A stretch of 64,000 nt of DNA. It comes from Cyanidioschyzon merolae (lineage: Eukaryota). Both the position numbers and the translations under genes were made by a program. How positions within the stretch are numbered: the stretch's first letter is position 1; the number at the start of each line of letters is the position of its first letter. Location of the stretch: assembly GCA_000091205.1 (NCBI GenBank), contig AP006497.2. One strand, given 5' to 3'. Below, one piece after another: positions 1 through 36,856 of this stretch. The notes beneath the pieces were generated by a model that saw only the letters and a program-made list of their open reading frames with translations, did no database searches and was not told the origin of the DNA.

Positions 1-239
1 GGGAGCGTCCGCGGGAGACACGCGGTCGGGCGTCGTGTCCAATTTGGGCCGTGCCTCACGCGCAACGTGTCCGGCGGATACAGACATGCGCGCGCACGCA
101 CGCACGCGCCGGCCGGCGCGCCTGCGAGCTAACTACGTCATCGTCATGCACCGCAACTGGATTCCATAGACAGGCGCGTGTCATCTCATGCTCTTTCGAG
201 GTGTAAGGCAGACGCGTTCGATTGCGTCTATTTAAAGTA

Positions 240-700
240 ATATAAAATCCAAGGTATGGAGATGAAAGTCGGGGATCCTGGCGGACCGTCATCGCCGGGC
301 GCCCGGAAAAACGAAAAAGTCCTCTTCTCGCCTGTCATCGAGCGAAGAAGCGCAAGTGACGTAGATGAAGAAGAGTGGAGATAGTCAAGAAAAGGTGCTT
401 GATCCACGAGACGATGACGAGACTGTAGTGGCACAGAGGGCACGAGTTCAATGAGCCCCTGCGATCATGGGTTCAACCACCGGCAATGTACGCGAAGAAT
501 TTCGTGAACCGTGACCCCAACGCCGCCATGAATATAACACGACGTGTGGTGCTGGACACGAGTCCCGCGGAGCTGAGGCACTCTAGTTTTGTGAGGAAAC
601 CGCTCAAGGTCGAATTGTGCAAGAAGAAGTAGAAACCAGTAGCAGGTGACCGGTCAAAAAAAGGCGGGGCGGTGTCGGCGAGTGGGTATGCGTACCCCGC
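240..700 (+). mobile_element. Degraded 3' fragment of a TnpB/Fanzor-like element (copy 3), oriented tail-to-tail with copy 1. Includes a conserved 3' flank.
   Basis: The plus-strand frame at 429-632 translates to ...AKNFVNRDPNAAMNITRRVVLDTSPAELRHSSFVRKPLKVELCKKK*. The RDPNAAMNI stretch matches the RuvC-III consensus RDxNAAxNI and is homologous to RDFNAAINIRRCAVLETRPPE of copy 1. An upstream shifted frame (PVIERRSASDVDEE) resembles IPIDEFRTSHSHHE of copy 1, but with stops and frameshifts. DNA at 600-700 aligns with the reverse complement of 1845-1946. Confidence 0.55.
429..632 (+). pseudogene. C-terminal RuvC-III fragment of a TnpB/Fanzor-like nuclease (copy 3), truncated by an upstream in-frame stop at 426-428.
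   Basis: Direct translation gives a RDPNAAMNI motif. The peptide is homologous to the copy 1 C-terminus. It is inverted relative to 1946-2030. Confidence 0.5.
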
Positions 701-1284
701 TCTACGGTCGTGAGCCATTTTTCGTCTTGCTGAGTATATATATGGACGCTAGTGGAGGCGATGACTTAAACTACGCATAAGCGACATTCCGCGGGGATGT
801 TCCCGAGGGCCTTGTCCTGATGTGTTACCCGGTATCGCGCGCTCCCTGACCAATGTTTCAGTTTGCCGGGCAGTAGGTGAACCAGCCAGCTATCCAGCGG
901 GTTGTTTAGGTACAGGCATATTACATTCCCTTAAATTCACGAATCTTTTTAAGGAATCCTCTTGTTTCATACTACTACTTCCGTGCTTTTCGCGCTTAAA
1001 CTGAAATGCGCACAGAATACTCCGTCATGGATACCGATTGCGCAGCGCCTGCTTCTCTTCCACATGCGTGTGTCTCGGACCTAAAAAGTGCAGTATTTTG
1101 CGGTTATCCTGGAGTGTCGCCCTATCCACCGCAGAAGTAAACTCGTCCGGTGCCTGCTTCTTCCGATGCGCTGCGGCTGTACTGAACAGCAACGCCCGCT
1201 GAGACGCGGTCGTTGTGGAGTATTCACGTCGCAACCCAGCCAAGCGCAGCTTCCATACAAGGAAAGAAAGCTCTAGCGTCTCCT

Positions 1285-1878
1285 TTAAGTGTTGCCGACG
1301 TTGCGTTGGGGAACACCACTGGCCAGTTCGACCTTGGTGATGCGCCCGCCCATCTTCATGATCCGCTGCTGCTCGCTGTACCAGGAAGTGAACGGCACCA
1401 TCTTCGTTGTCGCAACGTTCTGCAACTCGCGACCGCTGTCAACACGTGACTGACTGGGCAGCACATACGAGACCTTAAACATGCGGCGATCATTCGCAAC
1501 GCCAGATGACTTGATGCGCCGCGGTCCGAGGTTCCCCGCGCTGCTCCCGTTCATATCGTACCCTGTCATGCGGACGCTCCAGGACGAGTGTGCCAAGCAC
1601 CGCTGCGACTCTGCAGACTTTGCAGAAGCCTTAACACCTGTTCCAAAGAAACTGGTCTGAACGAACATGGTCAACGAACGAAGAAACACAGAGAACAAAG
1701 ATATCGCGAAGTTGTGAGTCAAAAGACGGTGGTGCAGCGAGCGCAGCCGGCGAGCTCGCTTGCGTATTCTCGCCACGTTCTCGCCGGCCGTGTACAGTAG
1801 TGGCGATCGGCGCGCCTTGGACAAAACGTCTCCAACTGATGTGCAGACGCCTCCCCGTCTTTTTGGACCGGCCACCAA
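1285..1878 (-). CDS. Hypothetical protein, function unknown, lying between the two facing TnpB/Fanzor-like 3' ends. Its start may be non-ATG in the track.
   Basis: 197-aa ORF. Its C-terminal half (…KMVPFTSWYSEQQRIMKMGGRITKVELASGVPQ) looks protein-like, but I cannot assign a family. Confidence 0.25.
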   Translation of the reverse strand: MVAGPKRRGGVCTSVGDVLSKARRSPLLYTAGENVARIRKRARRLRSLHHRLLTHNFAISLFSVFLRSLTMFVQTSFFGTGVKASAKSAESQRCLAHSSWSVRMTGYDMNGSSAGNLGPRRIKSSGVANDRRMFKVSYVLPSQSRVDSGRELQNVATTKMVPFTSWYSEQQRIMKMGGRITKVELASGVPQRNVGNT

Positions 1879-1945
1879 CTACTTCTTCCAATTTTATCTC
1901 ATATAGTTCGACCTTAGAAGGTTGTCCAAAAAAGTACCTTCTTGT

Positions 1946-2557
1946 TCACTCTGGAGGTCTCGTCTCCAGCACCGCACATCTCCTGATATTGATGGCAGCG
2001 TTAAAGTCTCGGTTCGCAAACTCCATACGTTTCTTACCATCGTTGGTTGTACTTACTAATGCAAGTAGCCCTCGAAGTTTCGCCCTCCTTTCCATTTGCT
2101 CTTCCGTCAGCGGTCCGTACTTTTTTGCATCCTCAGGGCTCCGCTGGCACTTTTCCATCTCCACTCTCTGGAGCGTGCGCCCCCGCTCATGGTGTGAATG
2201 CGATGTTCGAAACTCATCTATCGGTATTGTAACAAAACGCCGTGCGCACTCCTTATACGTTCTCGTCGTTGGAGCTGGTGCAGTCCCTTTTTGGGTCTTC
2301 CATCGCCCTGCTCCGTACGCTACTACGAGCCTCTGACTTTCATCCTCCTTCAGGGCACTCAACTGATTGAAAAAATTCGCGAACGCCCGCTGCTTCCCAC
2401 AATACAAGTTCATTCGAAGACGAGCCCACCGGGGCTTGGTATACTCCTCCCACAGCGCATCCCAATGGGCAACACGAACTTCCATGAATTTCCGAAAAGC
2501 TTTAAAGTCCGCTCCTCGACTCATCACCTCGCTCAAAGCTTCCAGGTGCTCGTTCAT
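1946..2557 (-). pseudogene. C-terminal segment of the TnpB/Fanzor-like nuclease. It holds the TnpB-like TSQ-region equivalent and RuvC-III. A single TGA separates it, in frame, from the upstream segment.
   Basis: Translation gives ...RLVVAYGAGRW...FVTIPIDEFRTSHSHHERGRTLQRVEMEKCQ...KRMEFANRDFNAAINIRRCAVLETRPPE*. The RDFNAAINI stretch matches RuvC-III RDxNAAxNI. 'IDEFRTS' resembles the V-P-YTSQ segment that precedes the zinc finger in TnpB. The CxxC...CxxC zinc finger is replaced by a His-rich SHSHH...C stretch. Confidence 0.65.
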
Positions 2558-2566
2558 TCCTGAATT

Positions 2567-3655
2567 TCAAGTCTCGATTTTGTTCCTTGCATTCATGCTT
2601 CCCGATTCTCGATAATATCTCGCTCTCGAGAACCTCAACAGACGCATGTCTTTCTGACATAAGTTACCGTCAGGACCATCTTCCGCACGCTTCGGTGCTG
2701 CGATGGTGATGATATTTGTGTTGCCGGGGTCCGCGCCAATGACAAAGTCGTTATCCTGCACTTTCCGCGTCTCAGGATCTGCTTCTTTCTCATCTTCATC
2801 CTTCGTCACCTCAACGACATGCACGTTATCCTGCACCTGCTGCATCGCAGGATCCTCCTTTTCGTTTTCTTCATCCTTCGCCGCGTCAACGACAAGGTCG
2901 TTATTCTCTACCTCCTGCGTCGCGGGATCCGCCTCCTCCTTTTCCTCATGGTTCGCCGAGGGCGGGACTGGTCGATCTCTCTTCAACCGCCGATAGTGTA
3001 CACACAAGGCTACTCCATCGGTTTCGATTAACCCAGTGGACAACTTTTGCTTGCTCACTCTCAGACGTTTGGAGCTGAAGATATTCTTCCAGGACATCTC
3101 CCGGTTTTCACCGGAAAACTCCTCCCTGCTAACATCGAACTCGGGACTGATCTCCTTCATGATGCCATGAGGGATTCTGGAGTCGATAGTCACGAAATGT
3201 GACTTGATATTGGACATTGGAACGACGTTGAAGCGCTTCTCCTTTAGGACAGCCTTCCTTTCCTCCCACTCTAAATTTTCCCTATTCAGCCTCATCTCTG
3301 CTTTGCGTTCGAGCTCTCGGTCGAGAAATACGAAATATCGCAGGAAAAGGCGATAGTATCTTTCCTTATCTTTTTTCAACTCTGATATCTTGTCTGTTGG
3401 ATTCGCCATCCCCAAGATTGCACGGTGCGCTTGTAGAACCGCGCGGATTACAGAAGCCTCATTCGTGCTCTCGTTTGACCCCTTCTCTCCGGCGAATTCG
3501 ACCTCATCTTGATGCTTACGATCTTTCGTGATGCCATTCATAATCGCCCATTTTCCATTGCGCGATAGGCCCGGGTAGAGTGCAATCACGGCGCGTATCA
3601 TGAAACGTTCGAGGCTCGTTGTCAAATGGTTCTTCAGGTTCGTGAGGTACTTCAT
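2567..3655 (-). pseudogene. Middle segment of the TnpB/Fanzor-like nuclease. It contains a REC/WED-like region, acidic 24-aa tandem repeats and RuvC-I.
   Basis: The segment ends ...DNDFVIGADPGNTNIITIAAPKRAEDG..., matching the RuvC-I consensus GIDxG..N of TnpB/Cas12. It is in the same frame as 1946-2557 but separated from it by TGA at 2567-2569. Its N-terminal part (MKYLTNLKNHL...FMIRAVIALYPGLSRNGKWAIMNG) is homologous to the copy 2 peptide IKYLANPNNHMNMNPERFMIPSIFALYPGGSRKARCAIIHG. Confidence 0.65.
2700..2950 (-). repeat. Three tandem units of about 72 bp inside the nuclease ORF. They encode D/E-rich 24-aa repeats (…KDEENEKEDPAMQQVQDNVHVVEVT…).
   Basis: The units '...ttcatccttcgtcacctcaacgacatgcacgttatcctgcacctgctgcatcgcaggatcctcc...' and '...ttcatccttcgccgcgtcaacgacaaggtcgttattctctacctcctgcgtcgcgggatccgcctcc...' are visibly repeated. 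Confidence 0.6.
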
Positions 3656-3793
3656 CGCTCCGCATGTGTAAATATCCCGGTGACTCTTGTACCGACGAAC
3701 CCGTAAGAGGGATGTTTTTCGTGGAAGGCATGCACTAGCTCATTTTTCCTCCGCGCTTCCTCTGTACCAAGCATCAGGTGATGAATAAAGGTC

Positions 3794-4084
3794 TTATCGA
3801 AAAACCCGTCCGGGAACCTCGACCGTTTCCATGTGCGTCACGTCGCGATACATCTCCCTCGCCAAATACATCAGTCCTGACGACGCCTTGACAATACTCT
3901 TGGAGTACGAGTCGACACGTTTTTTGATAGCGTCTCGCAACTTTTCGCTGTACGGATCCTTGATATATCCAAGAAGAAAGGTTTTCACCACCTTCTCGTC
4001 GTACAGCCGTCTTTCTTGCTGCCTTCGACGTAGGGCCTCCCCCTTTTGCTTCTTTTCCTCTTCCTTTTCTTCTGGAATGGGCAC
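3794..4084 (-). pseudogene. N-terminal segment of the TnpB/Fanzor-like nuclease. The track start is GTG. It is frame-disrupted relative to the 2567-3655 segment.
   Basis: The peptide ...VVKTFLLGYIKDPYSEKLRDAIKKRVDSYSKSIVKASSGLMYLAREMYRDVTHMETVEVPGRVFR* is homologous to copy 2 (VKAFLLWNIKDPYEEKLPEAIRNRVASSSLSVCKASSGIIHLLKEMYDYVMELKTVEVPEELF). An alternative frame over the same DNA encodes a K/R-rich stretch (SRRKGRGKEAKGGGPTSKAARKTAVRR). Confidence 0.55.
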
Positions 4085-5877
4085 TGTTTTTTGTTTTTTC
4101 TCCAGCAGCCGGCGACCCTGGGCCTCCAGGATCGTGAACTTGCTTTTTCACAGCTTTCCTTGTTTTGTTTTTTTTTTGAAAAAGAACGCTCTTTGAACCC
4201 TTCTGTTATATACTGCAAAAAACACTAGACTAGACTTGTTTGAAGTTTGAAACAAAAACGAACTGAAAGACTGTACTTTGCTATGACCTCAACGGAAATC
4301 CAACTTTCTACAGCTGAACAACACGCTAGAGATCAGGATCGCGTTTCCGTTCAACGGAGGCATACGCGTCGTGTCTCATGCCTGCCTGATCTCCCAGTTG
4401 CGCTCACTGAGCGCGATGCGTGCACCGCGCGAGACGCCTCACCGATCAATAAAGGACACGTGTCCGACACCCTGCATTGGCACGTGCGTGTTCGCATCGC
4501 ACTGCAGCCAAAATAACGTATCGTAGATCGGAAACTCACGTAGAATGCACTCCTGCTATAGGCTATGTCGTTGGTGCCTATCGCAGTGCCGCCCTGAAGC
4601 ACAGTCGGTGTTGTGGCACGCTTGGATCTCCATAATGCCTCCAGAAGAAGCGTAGCTTTCGCAGCGGCTCACGCTTGTCTGGATGAGGTGTGCATCACAC
4701 TAGCCTTGAAGAGTTTCGTTAGTTTTATTGATCGTAACCAAAGTAGGCATATTAGTGTTCCCGAACACGGCTACAAGTTTATTCCCTATGCTTGTTATGC
4801 ATGCTGCACGGACGCTGCAGGGAGTATCTAATTTGAATTGTGCTTCTATCCTGCGTCATAGGCTGGTACTGATGACAGCTCAAGTCATTTCCATGCTGCT
4901 TTCGTTGTCTAAATTATGGTGCCTGCTTCGTCCTCCGGATCCGGTGATCTTGGCAGAGGCAGAGCACACTCGACGGGCCCTTTGCTATCGGTTTCAGCTT
5001 CTCCTTGTTCAACTCTGGGCTGGGAGGTTCCCCCATAAAGTTGGACCGCGTCAGCTCCGCCGATCGCGCCTCCACCACCATACATCATCTGACATTGATG
5101 GCGTTTTGTCTAAAACGCTCGTGATAGAGCTGAGGTCAAGAAGCGATCAATCTTGACCGACGCTATCAAACGAGCGGTAACAGAAGCTGAGGGCTGTAGC
5201 CGGCACCAGGTGCTCTGGTGCCTACATGCTGGCCGTGAATCGTGCGTGACGAAGCCGCACAGCATGCCACGGTTTCCTAGTACGTAAACCAAGCACGTAT
5301 TCGAAACGTTCGGGTTCAGTGTGATGACGAGTCGCCGCTGCGGCATTCTGGGAAAATCATCCGAGTGCGCTATGGTTTTTCGAATATCGAGCATCATCAC
5401 GAGTGTGGGTGCGCTTCACTGCACGAGTTGCAACGATCACCGAATCCACCATCATCCAAAAGTGACGAAAATTCACATGCGCACCGGCCTCGCACCTCTA
5501 GGTCAGGACGTGCCCACCAGCACGCAAACAAATTTCGTGCCCCGCTGTGCTTTCACCAAAAACGAAAGGAAACATGCGTTTCCTCGACCAGGGATAGAGG
5601 GTTCCGAATTCCTTCAGATACTGCCGATGTTTCGCCCGAACCCAGACCAGCATCTGCAGTGTGCCCACGAGCATACACAGGATGCCTGCGATTGTTCGCA
5701 TCATCGAGATCAATCCTACGCACGCCAGTACCTCAAATATGCAGTTCGGATACGACACGAACTCGAAAAGCAAGCCGAATGGGATCCGCCACCAGCGGCG
5801 ACCGCGAAACCCGATTGCAAACCGCTCCCGCAAGCCATTTGGGCAAACGAGTGGTGCAGCGCGCATGTTCATATAAT

Positions 5878-5915
<38 letters not shown>
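5878..5915. repeat. (CAG)12 microsatellite immediately upstream of the Mpv17-like start codon.
   Basis: The run gcagcagcag... is read directly from the sequence. Confidence 0.95.
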
Positions 5916-5916
<1 letters not shown>

Positions 5917-5960
5917 TGCAAATACCCCACTGCATCTGCGCAGTTCCTGGACCAGCACCG

Positions 5961-6629
5961 ATGAGGCACGTGCGGGGCAGTCCAGCCGTGCAGGCTGTTG
6001 CTAACTTATACGATCGGTACCTTCGCAGCCTCCAGCGATACCCCGTAACTACAAAGTCGCTGACTGCTGCCTCGGTTGGTGCTGCAGGTGACGCGTTGGC
6101 GCAGTTGCTCGAACGTCGTCAGCGAACACCGACAGCTGAGCGATTGGGAGACCCTGGTCCACAGAAGCCGTTTAACTGGCGAAGGCTAGTGTTATTCGCA
6201 ACGTTCATGGGTGTCTTTAGCGCACCAGTTTCTCATTATTGGTACCTTTGGTTAAGCAAACGCTTTCCCGCAACCAATATGGTAGCGGTTAGCAAACGCG
6301 TTGCCTGTGATCAGTTGCTTATGGCGCCGACAATCATCCCGGCAACACTGTTTTTTCTCGAGTACGCCGGGCGAAAGTTTGTCGCTGGAGAGAATGGTGA
6401 CGGCCTGTTGCGACACGCCTTGCAGGTCGCAAGCGAGGAAACCGGTCGTACGCTGCTGGCGAACTGGACGATATGGCCTATAGCGCAAGTTGTGAACTTC
6501 CGCTTCGTCCGCAACGAGCTGCAGGTCCTGTTCGCAAATCTGGTCGGTGTGGGATGGAATACCTTTCTCAGCCTTGTCGCTGCCGAAAACCTGCAGAAAA
6601 GCCATAAAACATTGACGAAAGCTGATTGA
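5961..6629 (+). CDS. Mpv17/PMP22-family membrane protein.
   Basis: The sequence ...TTKSLTAASVGAAGDALAQ...FMGVFSAPVSHYWYLWL...WTIWPIAQVVNFRFVRNELQVLFANLVGVGWNTFLS matches the conserved Mpv17/PMP22 pattern (GD..Q, H.WY, W.VWP..Q..NF.FVP...RVLF.N.V...WN.YLS). The track start at 5916 is GTG. The first ATG is at 5961. Confidence 0.7.
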   Translation: MRHVRGSPAVQAVANLYDRYLRSLQRYPVTTKSLTAASVGAAGDALAQLLERRQRTPTAERLGDPGPQKPFNWRRLVLFATFMGVFSAPVSHYWYLWLSKRFPATNMVAVSKRVACDQLLMAPTIIPATLFFLEYAGRKFVAGENGDGLLRHALQVASEETGRTLLANWTIWPIAQVVNFRFVRNELQVLFANLVGVGWNTFLSLVAAENLQKSHKTLTKAD

Positions 6630-35169: not shown

Positions 35170-36160
35170 GCAGGGCGCTGATGCTCGGTGCTCCCGGAGC
35201 GCGCTGCACGCATCACAGAGGCTTCATTCGTTCTCCTGTGTGTGATGTCTTCTCGTCGACGAATCCGTTCTCATCTTCATGCTGGCGATCGTTGTTCGAG
35301 CCATGGATGATGGCACATCTCGCCTTGCGAGAGCCGCCCGGGTACAGCGCAAAGATGGAGGGTATCATGAAACGTTCGGGGTTCATGTTCATATGGTTGT
35401 TCGGGTTCGCGAGGTACTTGATTGCGCCGTATTCGTAAACAACCGAGTCGCCCCTGAATAAAATAACGTTGAAGCGGTATTCAGCATAATTTTCATGGAG
35501 GGCATGCACTCGCTCGTTTCTCCTCGACGTTTCCCCCGTGCCAAGCATTAGGCGTCTGTTGCAGGTAACGTTGAAAAGCTCCTCCGGAACCTCGACCGTT
35601 TTCAATTCCATAACGTAATCGTACATCTCTTTCAATAAATGGATTATTCCTGAAGAAGCCTTGCAAACACTCAAGGAGCTGGACGCGACACGGTTTCTGA
35701 TAGCCTCTGGCAGCTTTTCCTCATAGGGATCCTTGATATTCCATAGAAGAAAGGCTTTCACCTCTATCTCGTCGATCTGCAATCTTTCGGCTAGCTTCTG
35801 ACGTCGGACCTCCGGCTTTCGCTTCTTTTCTTCTCCTGTTCCTTTTTACTCGGTTGTGAATTTCGTGTTGTTCTGGCAGCCGGTGATACCGGCCCAGCAA
35901 GATCCTCGACTTCCTTCTGCATAATGCTATGTTTTTGGAAGAAACACACTTTGAACGCATCTGCTATAAACCGTGAAAAATCTCTTGAATCCACTTACTT
36001 GACGCTTGAAGCACAACTGAAATGAAAGACTGTATTTTGTCACAACTTTAACCGAAATATATCTTGTACGGTAGAACGAAACGCTATTCGTTAGAAGCGC
36101 GTTCCTCCTCAACGGCGAGATGCGCGTCGTTGCTCTCGGCTGCGGAATATGGAGGTGCGC
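35000..36160 (-). mobile_element. Decayed N-terminal fragment of a TnpB/Fanzor-like element (copy 2) with a conserved 5' leader.
   Basis: The peptide at 35213-35782 is homologous to copy 1, matching both its N-terminal segment (3794-4084) and the start of its middle segment. The leader at 35950-36160 aligns with 4190-4395. Protein-level similarity continues about 60 nt past the stop at 35213 (HEDENGFVDEKTSHTGERMKPL*CVQRAPGA against HQDEVEFAGEKGSNESTNEASVIRAVLQAHRA). Confidence 0.55.
35213..35782 (-). pseudogene. Truncated N-terminal portion of a TnpB/Fanzor-like nuclease (copy 2).
   Basis: MQIDEIEVKAFLLWNIKDPYEEKL...IKYLANPNNHMNMNPERFMIPSIFALYPGGSRKARCAIIHGSNNDRQHEDENGFVDEKTSH aligns with the copy 1 segments. 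Confidence 0.55.
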
Positions 36161-36856
36161 GACCCGACCCCAATATATAGAACAAAGAGCAGAAACTAAC
36201 CACTAACTTGCAACGACGTTACGATTTCTTTCCCTCTCTATGATAAACATGAAAAGAGGGTAGGGCTTTTCGTGCTGTCGAACGTTCGCCTTCTAGGCCG
36301 AGGTTCCCGCGGGCCGGACGAGTCTGCCGTGCAATCGCTCCGTATTCCTCTGCAGTGGCAGGTGCTGTGGTGAGATCTGAGCAACTCTTCTGCAGCGCAG
36401 GTAATTCTGGGACTCGGAGCGGGTAGCATGCGTCTGGGCGTTGCGCTTGTCCTAGTGGACATCTAGTGTGTCGCTTCGCGCTGTCGCAGGTAGTACGTTT
36501 GTCTGTGCAGATCGCAGGCTCCCAGCATGATAACTAGCCCTGATTCCGTGTCAGATGGAGCATCCCTCGATCCGACGCCCTATGCGGTTTGGCAAAGCCG
36601 TTCCAGCGTGGTGCTGCATCCCTACCAACGATATAGGCGCTTTGGCTGGAACTCAAAGCAGGCACTCGGCATAAGATAGAGCCTAGGAAAACGCCAGCAC
36701 ATCCGAGAGGAAGTAAAACGAACGGAGCCTGGAAACAGAGCGTGGAATCATGGATACGTCAACGCGCGCTATTCTCAAGGGCATCGGTCACGGAACGCTG
36801 GCCTCTGTGTCAACGACTCGCTCGAAACCGAATTCCGTTACGTCTCGCCTCTTCGT

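Follow-up and report, generated by a model that had tools for sequence, protein, structure and literature searches.

The 3′ module of the Fanzor1 element CMe-1A in Cyanidioschyzon merolae is a probable omega-RNA scaffold

The omega-RNAs of Fanzor nucleases are encoded between the end of the open reading frame (ORF) and the right end of the transposon (PMC10432273; PMC10530073). In ApmFNuc, the non-coding region on the 3′ side is conserved and structured, and Rhodophyta are among the listed Fanzor hosts (PMC10530073). For Cyanidioschyzon merolae, Bao and Jurka (2013, Mob DNA 4:12; PMC3627910) listed CMe-1A as the sole Fanzor1 family. It has about 150 copies and encodes a 734-aa protein, and its consensus of 3169 bp has defined left and right ends; their supplementary table gives it neither terminal inverted repeats nor target duplication. 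Here we describe two decayed copies of this family in a 64,000-nt stretch of C. merolae DNA (GenBank assembly GCA_000091205.1, contig AP006497.2; hereafter the window), together with a conserved segment on their 3′ side that is probably the omega-RNA scaffold of the CMe-1 family. The family and its Fanzor1 protein have been known since 2013 and the principle of a 3′ omega-RNA since 2023; among the papers searched, none connecting the C. merolae family with a guide RNA was found.

The 3′ flank of CMe-1A and its folded module

A sequence-only reading of the window had described two TnpB/Fanzor-like copies lying tail-to-tail, with DNA similarity continuing past both stop codons. Both observations were confirmed. 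The RuvC-III motif reads NRDPNAAMNI at 507-536 on the plus strand (copy 2) and NRDFNAAINI on the minus strand (copy 1), and blastn of 506-679 against the reverse complement of 2015-1843 gave 68% identity over 176 nt (E=7e-8). Within this inverted repeat, 501-572 matches 1949-2020 at 74% and 606-661 matches 1860-1915 at 71%, and the pairwise alignment fades at about 690-700 and about 1850. The GLVSST..MAAL..SRF peptides reported on opposite strands turned out to be only an antisense reading of the RuvC-III motif.

The window was then compared by blastn with the CMe-1A consensus taken from supplementary file 2 of PMC3627910. On the minus strand, window 4391-2881 matched consensus 671-2196 at 83%, 2809-1782 matched 2118-3145 at 88.5%, and 36733-35203 matched 90-1624 at 79%; on the plus strand, 501-679 matched 2907-3084 at 72%. 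Nucleotide identity in copy 1 extends over most of the consensus (positions 671-3145). At the protein level, 112 homologues were found, the majority of them 55-80% identical and from Joint Genome Institute (JGI) metagenomes, often in large clusters, and a family profile (alignment A2) matched the characterized Fanzor1 proteins PpFz1 (PDB 9cf0, E=1.8e-17) and SpuFz1 (8gkh, E=1.9e-10). On these matches, both window copies are assigned to the published Fanzor1 element CMe-1A, copy 2 reading as a decayed 3′ fragment of a diverged subfamily.

The shared flank had been called non-coding, which did not hold for its first part. In copy 2, the in-frame tail 573-629 reads SPAELRHSSFVRKPLKVELCKKK and ends with TAG at 630-632; copy 1 reads RPPE-stop-TRRYFFGQPSKVELYEIKL in frame, the tail following its TGA. 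The pattern RPxxLxRxxFxGQxLKVELY is kept in the family. Intact relatives of 28-38% identity (P0064, P0069, P0071, P0077, and others) carry about 25 residues past RuvC-III, RPxxLxRxxFxGxxLxxxVGxxIxR-stop, and the PpFz1 C-terminus likewise reads ...RPPLFSRE. Conservation at codon positions 1/2/3 in the family was 0.865/0.882/0.715 in the RuvC-III region and 0.783/0.844/0.720 in the tail; the tail is therefore still coding-like. Because it is also kept in relatives, the stretches 573-629 and 1945-1889 represent a (former) coding tail of approximately 60 nt that makes up about half of the shared flank and looks non-coding in copy 1 only because of the premature TGA at 1946-1948. The codon at the place of this TGA was TTG or CTG (Leu) in 20 of the 57 family copies, TGG in 10, TCG in 7, TAG in 10, and TGA in 1. 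The Leu codon of the RPxxL motif is thus a recurrent stop located exactly at the start of the coding tail.

Beyond their stops, the two copies share the last 20 or so Fanzor codons and, following these, the first half of a structured module that is about 95 nt long. Codon-position conservation was 0.768/0.794/0.764 in the whole module and 0.787/0.805/0.752 in the part under the consensus ORF (…EAVVGGRSKKTGRRLHVSWRRFV-stop); from these near-flat values, periodicity is almost absent and conservation exceeds the 0.715 taken as a proxy from third positions. Some indels have lengths not divisible by three and break the frame, and a hypervariable loop lies between conserved GGCG and CGCC arms. Mean pairwise identity among family copies was 0.82 in the RuvC-III coding region, 0.77 in the tail, 0.785 in the module, 0.66 in the linker and hairpin, and 0.29 beyond the end.

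To define the right end, 80 related loci were retrieved and 57 distinct 3′ ends were aligned. These ends align through ...GCCACTACTGTACAC, then about 8 nt, then a hairpin, and become random about 10 nt past it. Outward from the coding tail, they consist of TGGAAGCAGTAGTAGGTGGCCGGTCCAAAAAGACTGGGAGGCGTCTGCACGTCAGTTGGAGACGTTTTGTCTAGGGCG-variable loop-CGCCACTACTGTACAC, then about 8 nt (CGCTGGCG), then a 10-bp hairpin, and TT. Two versions of this terminal hairpin occur, each compensated relative to the other: CGTCGTTCGA-CTT-TCGAACGGCG and ACGTTTTTC-TTT-GAAAGGCGT. Information content is at background within about 10 nt of the right end, with a weak yGkTGTysG pattern after TT, and the published consensus terminates directly after the hairpin, at position 3169. 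In intact copies, the module of about 95 nt, a short linker, and the 10-bp hairpin occupy consensus ~3040-3169; this segment lies on the nuclease strand, at or past the 3′ end of the ORF, and reaches the right end.

In copy 1, the corresponding part (1888-1782) is truncated. It follows the family to GGCCGGCG (1782, equal to consensus 3145 of 3169) and then diverges, so that the last 24 nt, which form the terminal hairpin, are absent; in nearly all of the 80 loci, similarity to copy 1 stops at the equivalent of 1782. The right ends had previously been placed at about 700 and about 1845, and these positions must be given up: family similarity reaches 1782, and the similarity of copy 2 to locus L051 runs to 728. 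The break between copies 1 and 2 is not an end, because the subfamilies diverge in their distal 3′ parts. The group of copy 2 shares the proximal GCAGGYG-CCGGTC-A-rich loop-GGCTGG-GGCGTCTGC and then differs (...CCCTCTATCGTCGTGAGACATTTTTCG).

As for the fold, the 138-nt consensus reached -58.8 kcal/mol, compared with -45.1±4.1 for shuffles (z=-3.3; 1/200 shuffles as good), and RNAalifold with RIBOSUM scoring produced a closed multi-helix structure of -40 to -50 kcal/mol. A covariance model of the module recovered copy 1 (1743-1890) at 114 bits and copy 2 (631-768) at only 17 bits (E=0.15). Pairing was register-specific, with 80-88% of cells paired against 17-56% in slid registers, except for one register (+3, closing stem, 78%). 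For helices P1 (GTAGGTG/CGTCTGC) and P2 (CCGGTC/GACYGG), 80% of cells were paired across three subfamilies, compared with 32-41% when slid. The closing stem changes from CAGTA/TACTG in subfamily 1 to CGATA/TATCG in subfamily 2; its paired cells amounted to 81.9% against 77.2±1.0 in shuffles (0/500 reach this value), and 10 cells were changed on both sides against 4.1±1.8 expected (3/500 shuffles reach this).

We consider the module and terminal hairpin together to be the likely omega-RNA scaffold of the CMe-1 family, because they match established Fanzor/TnpB guide RNAs in size, in strand, and in where they lie relative to the right end; the sequence-only reading had correctly named the segment 3′ of the ORF as the expected place (PMC10432273; PMC10530073). 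Transcription of the scaffold would occur together with the Fanzor gene or start from its 3′ end, and the nuclease would bind the product, to which about 15-20 nt of flanking DNA beyond the right end would be appended as the guide. An active ribonucleoprotein would then be predicted to cut sites that match the right-end flank and lie beside a motif like that found at the left end, where a T-rich run could act as the target-adjacent motif (TAM).

That left-end motif was defined from nine independent copies beginning CGATGACAAAACGTTT… (L008, L009, L015, L022, L024, L034, L039, L044, and L065). Their upstream DNA is unrelated except for the last 10 nt, which contain 66% T and 86% pyrimidine compared with 20% and 49% further out (Fisher p=3e-15). 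The earlier suggestion to look for a short motif just outside each end was followed in these family loci, where the T-rich run was seen; the window copies themselves have neither end intact. The T-rich left flank and the TT of the right flank may reflect a target preference, a TAM-like motif, or both. We also observed a likeness between the first bases of the left end, GACAAAACGTTT, and the terminal hairpin's 3′ arm.

Weighing the omega-RNA reading against its alternatives

Several results weigh against a functional RNA. With default settings, RNAalifold found almost no structure in the 57-copy alignment, and the structure appeared only with RIBOSUM. Over the whole module, 87.9% of cells were paired against 37-56% when slid, and column shuffles nearly matched this value (87.5±0.2, although 0/500 reach it); double changes affected 12 pairs against 7.6 expected (20/500 shuffles), which is weak by the tool's own caveats. 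P1/P2 showed no excess covariation, as 203/500 shuffles reach the observed value. In the closing-stem test, the arms were extracted by hand and the changes are inherited, representing few independent events. Folding the segment with covariation over further copies, as had been suggested, gave a stable fold, with covariation at or barely above controls within the family and modest in the closing stem (3-5/500 shuffles reach the observed value). Two pairings compete for GTAGGTG, of which the one with the 3′ end (-38.1 kcal/mol) is favored over P0+P1+P2 (-26.7 kcal/mol). An Rfam scan of window 1-6000 gave no relevant match, and the consensus ORF runs about 30 codons into the module (…WRRFV-stop), making that part formally coding. 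The covariance model, run with filters off, did not match the 3′ regions of the distant relatives described below, and homology of the P1/P2 core across the two clades consequently rests on reading the sequence. Finally, the terminal hairpin and subterminal sequence could be transposition signals.

This last point leads to an alternative in which the conserved segment acts in cis, as DNA, for right-end recognition or termination by a transposase and is no guide-RNA scaffold. A subterminal hairpin is the end signal of Helitron, IS91, and IS200/IS605-type elements. Hairpins are general at HUH-type transposon ends (PMC10288648), and CMe-1A, which lacks terminal inverted repeats and target duplication (PMC3627910), ends in one; our own search of the long CMe-1A copies found no terminal inverted repeats. 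The T-rich run before the element, the TT after it, and the likeness of the left-end start to the hairpin arm also fit such a signal. However, it would explain the last 25-40 nt at most and not the multi-helix module of about 95 nt upstream, and it leaves room for an RNA role, since TnpB/Fanzor scaffolds overlap the transposon end. The copies yielded neither a Rep/helicase gene nor any other transposase gene, although a RepHel partner was not tested for. We regard a pure DNA signal as unlikely.

It is also improbable, in our estimation, that the shared flank has no function of its own and consists of a former coding tail and ordinary transposon sequence retained by common ancestry, with a fold that is incidental to G+C-rich sequence. 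About half of the flank is indeed coding tail, copies 1 and 2 are about as similar in the flank (71%) as in the coding sequence (74%), and composition-matched shuffles already fold at -45 kcal/mol; covariation of P1/P2 does not exceed shuffles and that of the whole module does so only marginally. In contrast, the module is conserved above the third codon positions of the adjacent ORF (0.78 versus 0.715), and hypervariable loops lie between conserved complementary arms. The two versions of the terminal hairpin are compensated, as is the closing stem between subfamilies, and in distant relatives, too, a non-coding region on the 3′ side is conserved and compensated.

That the module is instead a C-terminal extension of the protein, specific to this lineage and conserved as coding sequence (consensus ORF ..KKLEAVVGGRSKKTGRRLHVSWRRFV-stop), is very improbable. 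In its favor, the published 734-aa CMe-1 protein and the family consensus both read to a TAG inside the module, 11/49 copies stop there, and P0006 and P0008 were called with the extension. Against it, periodicity is almost absent (0.787/0.805/0.752, where real coding sequence has 0.865/0.882/0.715), the reading frame ends at RPPE in 10 copies and is broken by indels in others, the stop codons of subfamily 2 and of the distant relatives precede the module, and the stretch after the TAG is equally conserved.

If the module is an omega-RNA, it offers a testable design: consensus ~3030-3169 with 15-20 nt of flank would make up an RNA about 140 nt in length, and the T-rich run would be the candidate TAM. 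The hosts of CMe-1A are thermoacidophilic algae that are genetically tractable and rich in homologous recombination. C. merolae would then be a convenient organism for studying the in vivo role of Fanzor in its transposon. As far as the window is concerned, the outcome is mundane, as it holds decayed copies of a known repeat.

Element copies and other content of the window

The features located in the window are listed in Table 1.

Table 1. Positions of Fanzor1-related features in the 64,000-nt window.
Feature	Position	Strand	Basis or remark
Copy 2, heavily decayed 3′ part of subfamily-2 Fanzor ORF	162-632	plus	RuvC-III 507-536, tail 573-629, TAG 630-632
Copy 2 3′ module, subfamily-2 type	633-730	plus	proximal P1/P2 (GGCGTCTGC-like) as in copy 1, distal part different
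Non-canonical substitute hairpin in flank	1746-1788	minus	GCCGGCGAG (1780-1788) with CTCGCCGGC (1746-1754)
Copy 1 linker TACACGGCCGGCG	1782-1794	minus	family homology ends at 1782
Copy 1 structured 3′ module, candidate omega-RNA scaffold core	1795-1888	minus	RNAalifold, consensus fold, covariance model
Module closing stem arms	1878-1884 with 1795-1801	minus	predicted
Module GGCG..CGCC hairpin, variable loop	1802-1816	minus	predicted
Module P1	1873-1879 with 1843-1849	minus	predicted
Module P2	1866-1871 with 1854-1859	minus	predicted
Former coding C-terminal tail of copy 1, TRRYFFGQPSKVELYEIKL	1889-1945	minus	behind premature TGA 1946-1948
Copy 1 Fanzor1 pseudogene, CMe-1A family	1946-4151	minus	translation and blastn to published consensus
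Copy 1 RuvC-III motif NRDFNAAINI, catalytic Asp	1985-2014	minus	translation, alignment A2
Copy 1 RuvC-II motif IDEFRTS, catalytic Glu	2201-2221	minus	translation, alignment A2
Copy 1 RuvC-I motif FVIGADPGNTN, catalytic Asp	2714-2746	minus	DPG columns nearly invariant in alignment A2
Copy 1 long-type 5′ region	4392-4974	minus	not in CMe-1A consensus; common to L006, L026, L031, L050, L072
Copy 3, subfamily-2-like remnant ..NAINVR-stop-CMVVEARSAELTRSNF..	4975-5126	minus	repeat and alignment evidence
Further partial CMe-1A copy	35203-36733	minus	consensus 90-1624, 79% identity; adjoins MFS transporter gene

Copy 1 is nearly full-length, extending from about 4975 to 1782, and its translation shows a single long, interrupted Fanzor-like reading frame. 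The Fanzor1 D...E...D arrangement with [TS][TS] and a C-terminal RD is present, in columns that are invariant or nearly so in alignment A2. Against the intact 752-aa relative P0001, an uninterrupted ORF of the same family called on another contig, copy 1 was 70% identical overall, except for stretches with frame loss. In-frame TGA codons occur at 2567-2569 and 1946-1948, the frame is lost within 3655-3800, and a further frameshift lies near 4095; relative to P0001 and CMe-1, copy 1 carries at least three frameshifts and two premature TGA codons and has no intact ORF. Judging from their frameshifts, in-frame stops, and truncation, both window copies are dead and cannot be active.

A C4 zinc finger (OrfB_Zn_ribbon) was not found between RuvC-II and RuvC-III, where copy 1 reads TSHSHHERGRTLQRVEMEKC with one Cys and the family consensus TSYTHHELGC..EKC has two Cys and two His. 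PF07282 scored E=0.09 on copy 1 versus 3e-6 on the distant relative P0093. A Pfam scan of the ORF pieces gave no significant match (top, Cas12f1-like_TNB, E=0.09), nor did one of close homologues. The finger thus appears to be degenerate in the CMe-1A clade; CMe-1 was classed as Fanzor1 despite this (Bao and Jurka 2013, PMC3627910). Just N-terminal of RuvC-I, the minus-strand ORF contains a 75-nt tandem repeat (window 2737-2961) that encodes 25-aa acidic units of the DPATQ.VQDND type. There are three units in copy 1, one in the CMe-1A consensus, four in P0001, and at least five in P0008, so that the repeat insert inside the nuclease varies in copy number.

The long-type 5′ region of copy 1 is 5′-truncated in the window, and a search of it for a transposase remnant found none. 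In three other loci, copies of the 138-nt module lie about 80 nt upstream of a full-element 5′ region (L050:126-253, L072:432-586, and L031:259-395); two are diverged and solo (48-49 bits), and the remaining one is part of a full copy arranged in tandem. Ghost elements or tandem insertions may account for them.

At the 3′ end of copy 1, the substitute hairpin is a perfect 9-bp inverted repeat formed from unrelated flank and the last element bases, and the covariance model aligned it at the hairpin positions. The canonical terminal hairpin was sought elsewhere in the window and was not found. We rejected the idea that it is an independent repeat targeted for insertion: in 470 kb, all hairpins follow the end motif, with 0 occurrences apart from it and none in the window. 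Likewise, a Tc1-like inverted-repeat terminus at ...CTACTGTA with a TA duplication was unsupported, as conservation continues past it, no matching left repeat was found, and the consensus ends after the hairpin.

Copy 2 extends at most from 162 to about 730 and may continue beyond the window start. On the plus strand, the coding capacity of 486-632 is limited to MYAKNFVNRDPNAAMNITRRVVLDTSPAELRHSSFVRKPLKVELCKKK, which stops precede, and 162-494 aligns with subfamily-2 copies in L079, L048, and L003. By its different distal 3′ part, copy 2 clusters with L051, L040, L003b, L023c, and L078b. Copy 3 is cut within its 3′ module and joined at about 4975 to the long-type 5′ region of copy 1. The 1.05 kb separating copies 1 and 2 is unique DNA. 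A second convergent pair of subfamily 1 and subfamily 2, tail-to-tail with 3′ ends about 40 nt apart, was seen in L023 (3665-4052); together with the pair in the window, these are too few for any pattern.

The other long ORFs of the window are intron-less eukaryotic genes, including eIF3d, a family-A DNA polymerase, an MFS transporter, and a kinase. The eIF3d had a 100% match only with a metagenome protein, and its best named matches were Cyanidiococcus yangmingshanensis (60%) and Cyanidium caldarium (48%), indicating that the host is a Cyanidiophyceae red alga and, judged by the metagenome match, probably a strain other than 10D. A CAG/CTG run at 5870-5910 gives poly-Q or poly-L in several frames.

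Distant relatives and comparison with described systems

Eight distant relatives of 28-38% identity (L063, L081, L082, and L084-L088) carry, on the Fanzor strand and immediately upstream, a transposase gene of the DDE_3 (IS630/Tc1-mariner) type; L083 begins too near its gene to show upstream content. We searched L082 and L084-L088 for repeats and found terminal inverted repeats of about 30 bp in 6/6, of which 5/6 have the form TATACTCTG…/…CAGGAGTATA and the ends of L085 are more diverged. From the Fanzor stop to the right repeat it is 80-200 nt, and the conserved 3′ non-coding region ends in that repeat. In the intact relatives L082, L083, and L063, this region is about 200 nt long, and a P1/P2-like core was predicted with default settings, with 15/40 pairs compensated; an alignment of eight distant 3′ regions was too divergent to fold. 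The string GGTGGCC[GA]G…CTGG…GGC may be homologous in both clades.

In the window, tblastn for DDE_3 gave no match at E<=1e-3. The PUl-1-like Fanzor1 genes in Tc1/mariner-type elements (Bao and Jurka 2013) resemble the distant relatives in their DDE_3 gene and inverted repeats of about 30 bp, and differ from the window copies and CMe-1A, which have neither transposase nor inverted repeats. This contrast suggests that one and the same nuclease has come to sit in a different transposon chassis. Non-autonomous elements of the Helitron2 type are expected to have a terminal hairpin, insertion at T-T, and neither inverted repeats nor target duplication; the right-end hairpin of the CMe-1A family, the T-rich run before its left end, and the TT after its right end may or may not reflect such a type. 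More tentatively, the Fanzor1 gene and its 3′ RNA module might move as a unit between unrelated chassis, the CMe-1A lineage having passed into, or turned into, an element that lacks inverted repeats and ends in a hairpin, with this hairpin perhaps serving as both a guide-adjacent stem and a right-end signal, a possibility we hold to be doubtful. If it were true, intact members from thermoacidophilic red algae would be Fanzor1 nucleases naturally adapted to heat and acid, for which a guide RNA about 140 nt long could be defined and whose TAM would be T-rich.

Compared with CMe-1A as published, copy 1 has a protein with the same motifs and a 3′ end that matches through ...GCCACTACTGTACACCGCTGGCG. 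The window copies differ in being truncated pseudogenes; copy 1 has the long-type 5′ region, three repeat units against one, and no terminal hairpin, and copy 2 comes from a diverged subfamily. The 2013 account precedes the omega-RNA and describes none.

The omega-RNA of SpuFz1 from Spizellomyces punctatus (Saito et al. 2023, PMC10432273) is likewise a same-strand scaffold between the Fanzor1 stop and the right end. It has 75 nt, compared with about 95 nt plus the hairpin in CMe-1A, and a guide of 14-15 nt from the variable flank would be expected. Unlike CMe-1A, which lacks inverted repeats and ends in a hairpin, SpuFz1 has a scaffold that extends across a 30-nt inverted repeat; the two RNAs share no detectable sequence similarity, and expression and binding were demonstrated for SpuFz1, while the CMe-1A candidate is known from its sequence. 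Although the overlap between ORF and module in CMe-1A is almost without coding constraint and is absent in subfamily 2, the candidate scaffold resembles the omega-RNAs of ISDra2 TnpB and GtFz1 (PMC10432273), which overlap the 3′ end of the ORF as the module does under the CMe-1A consensus ORF.

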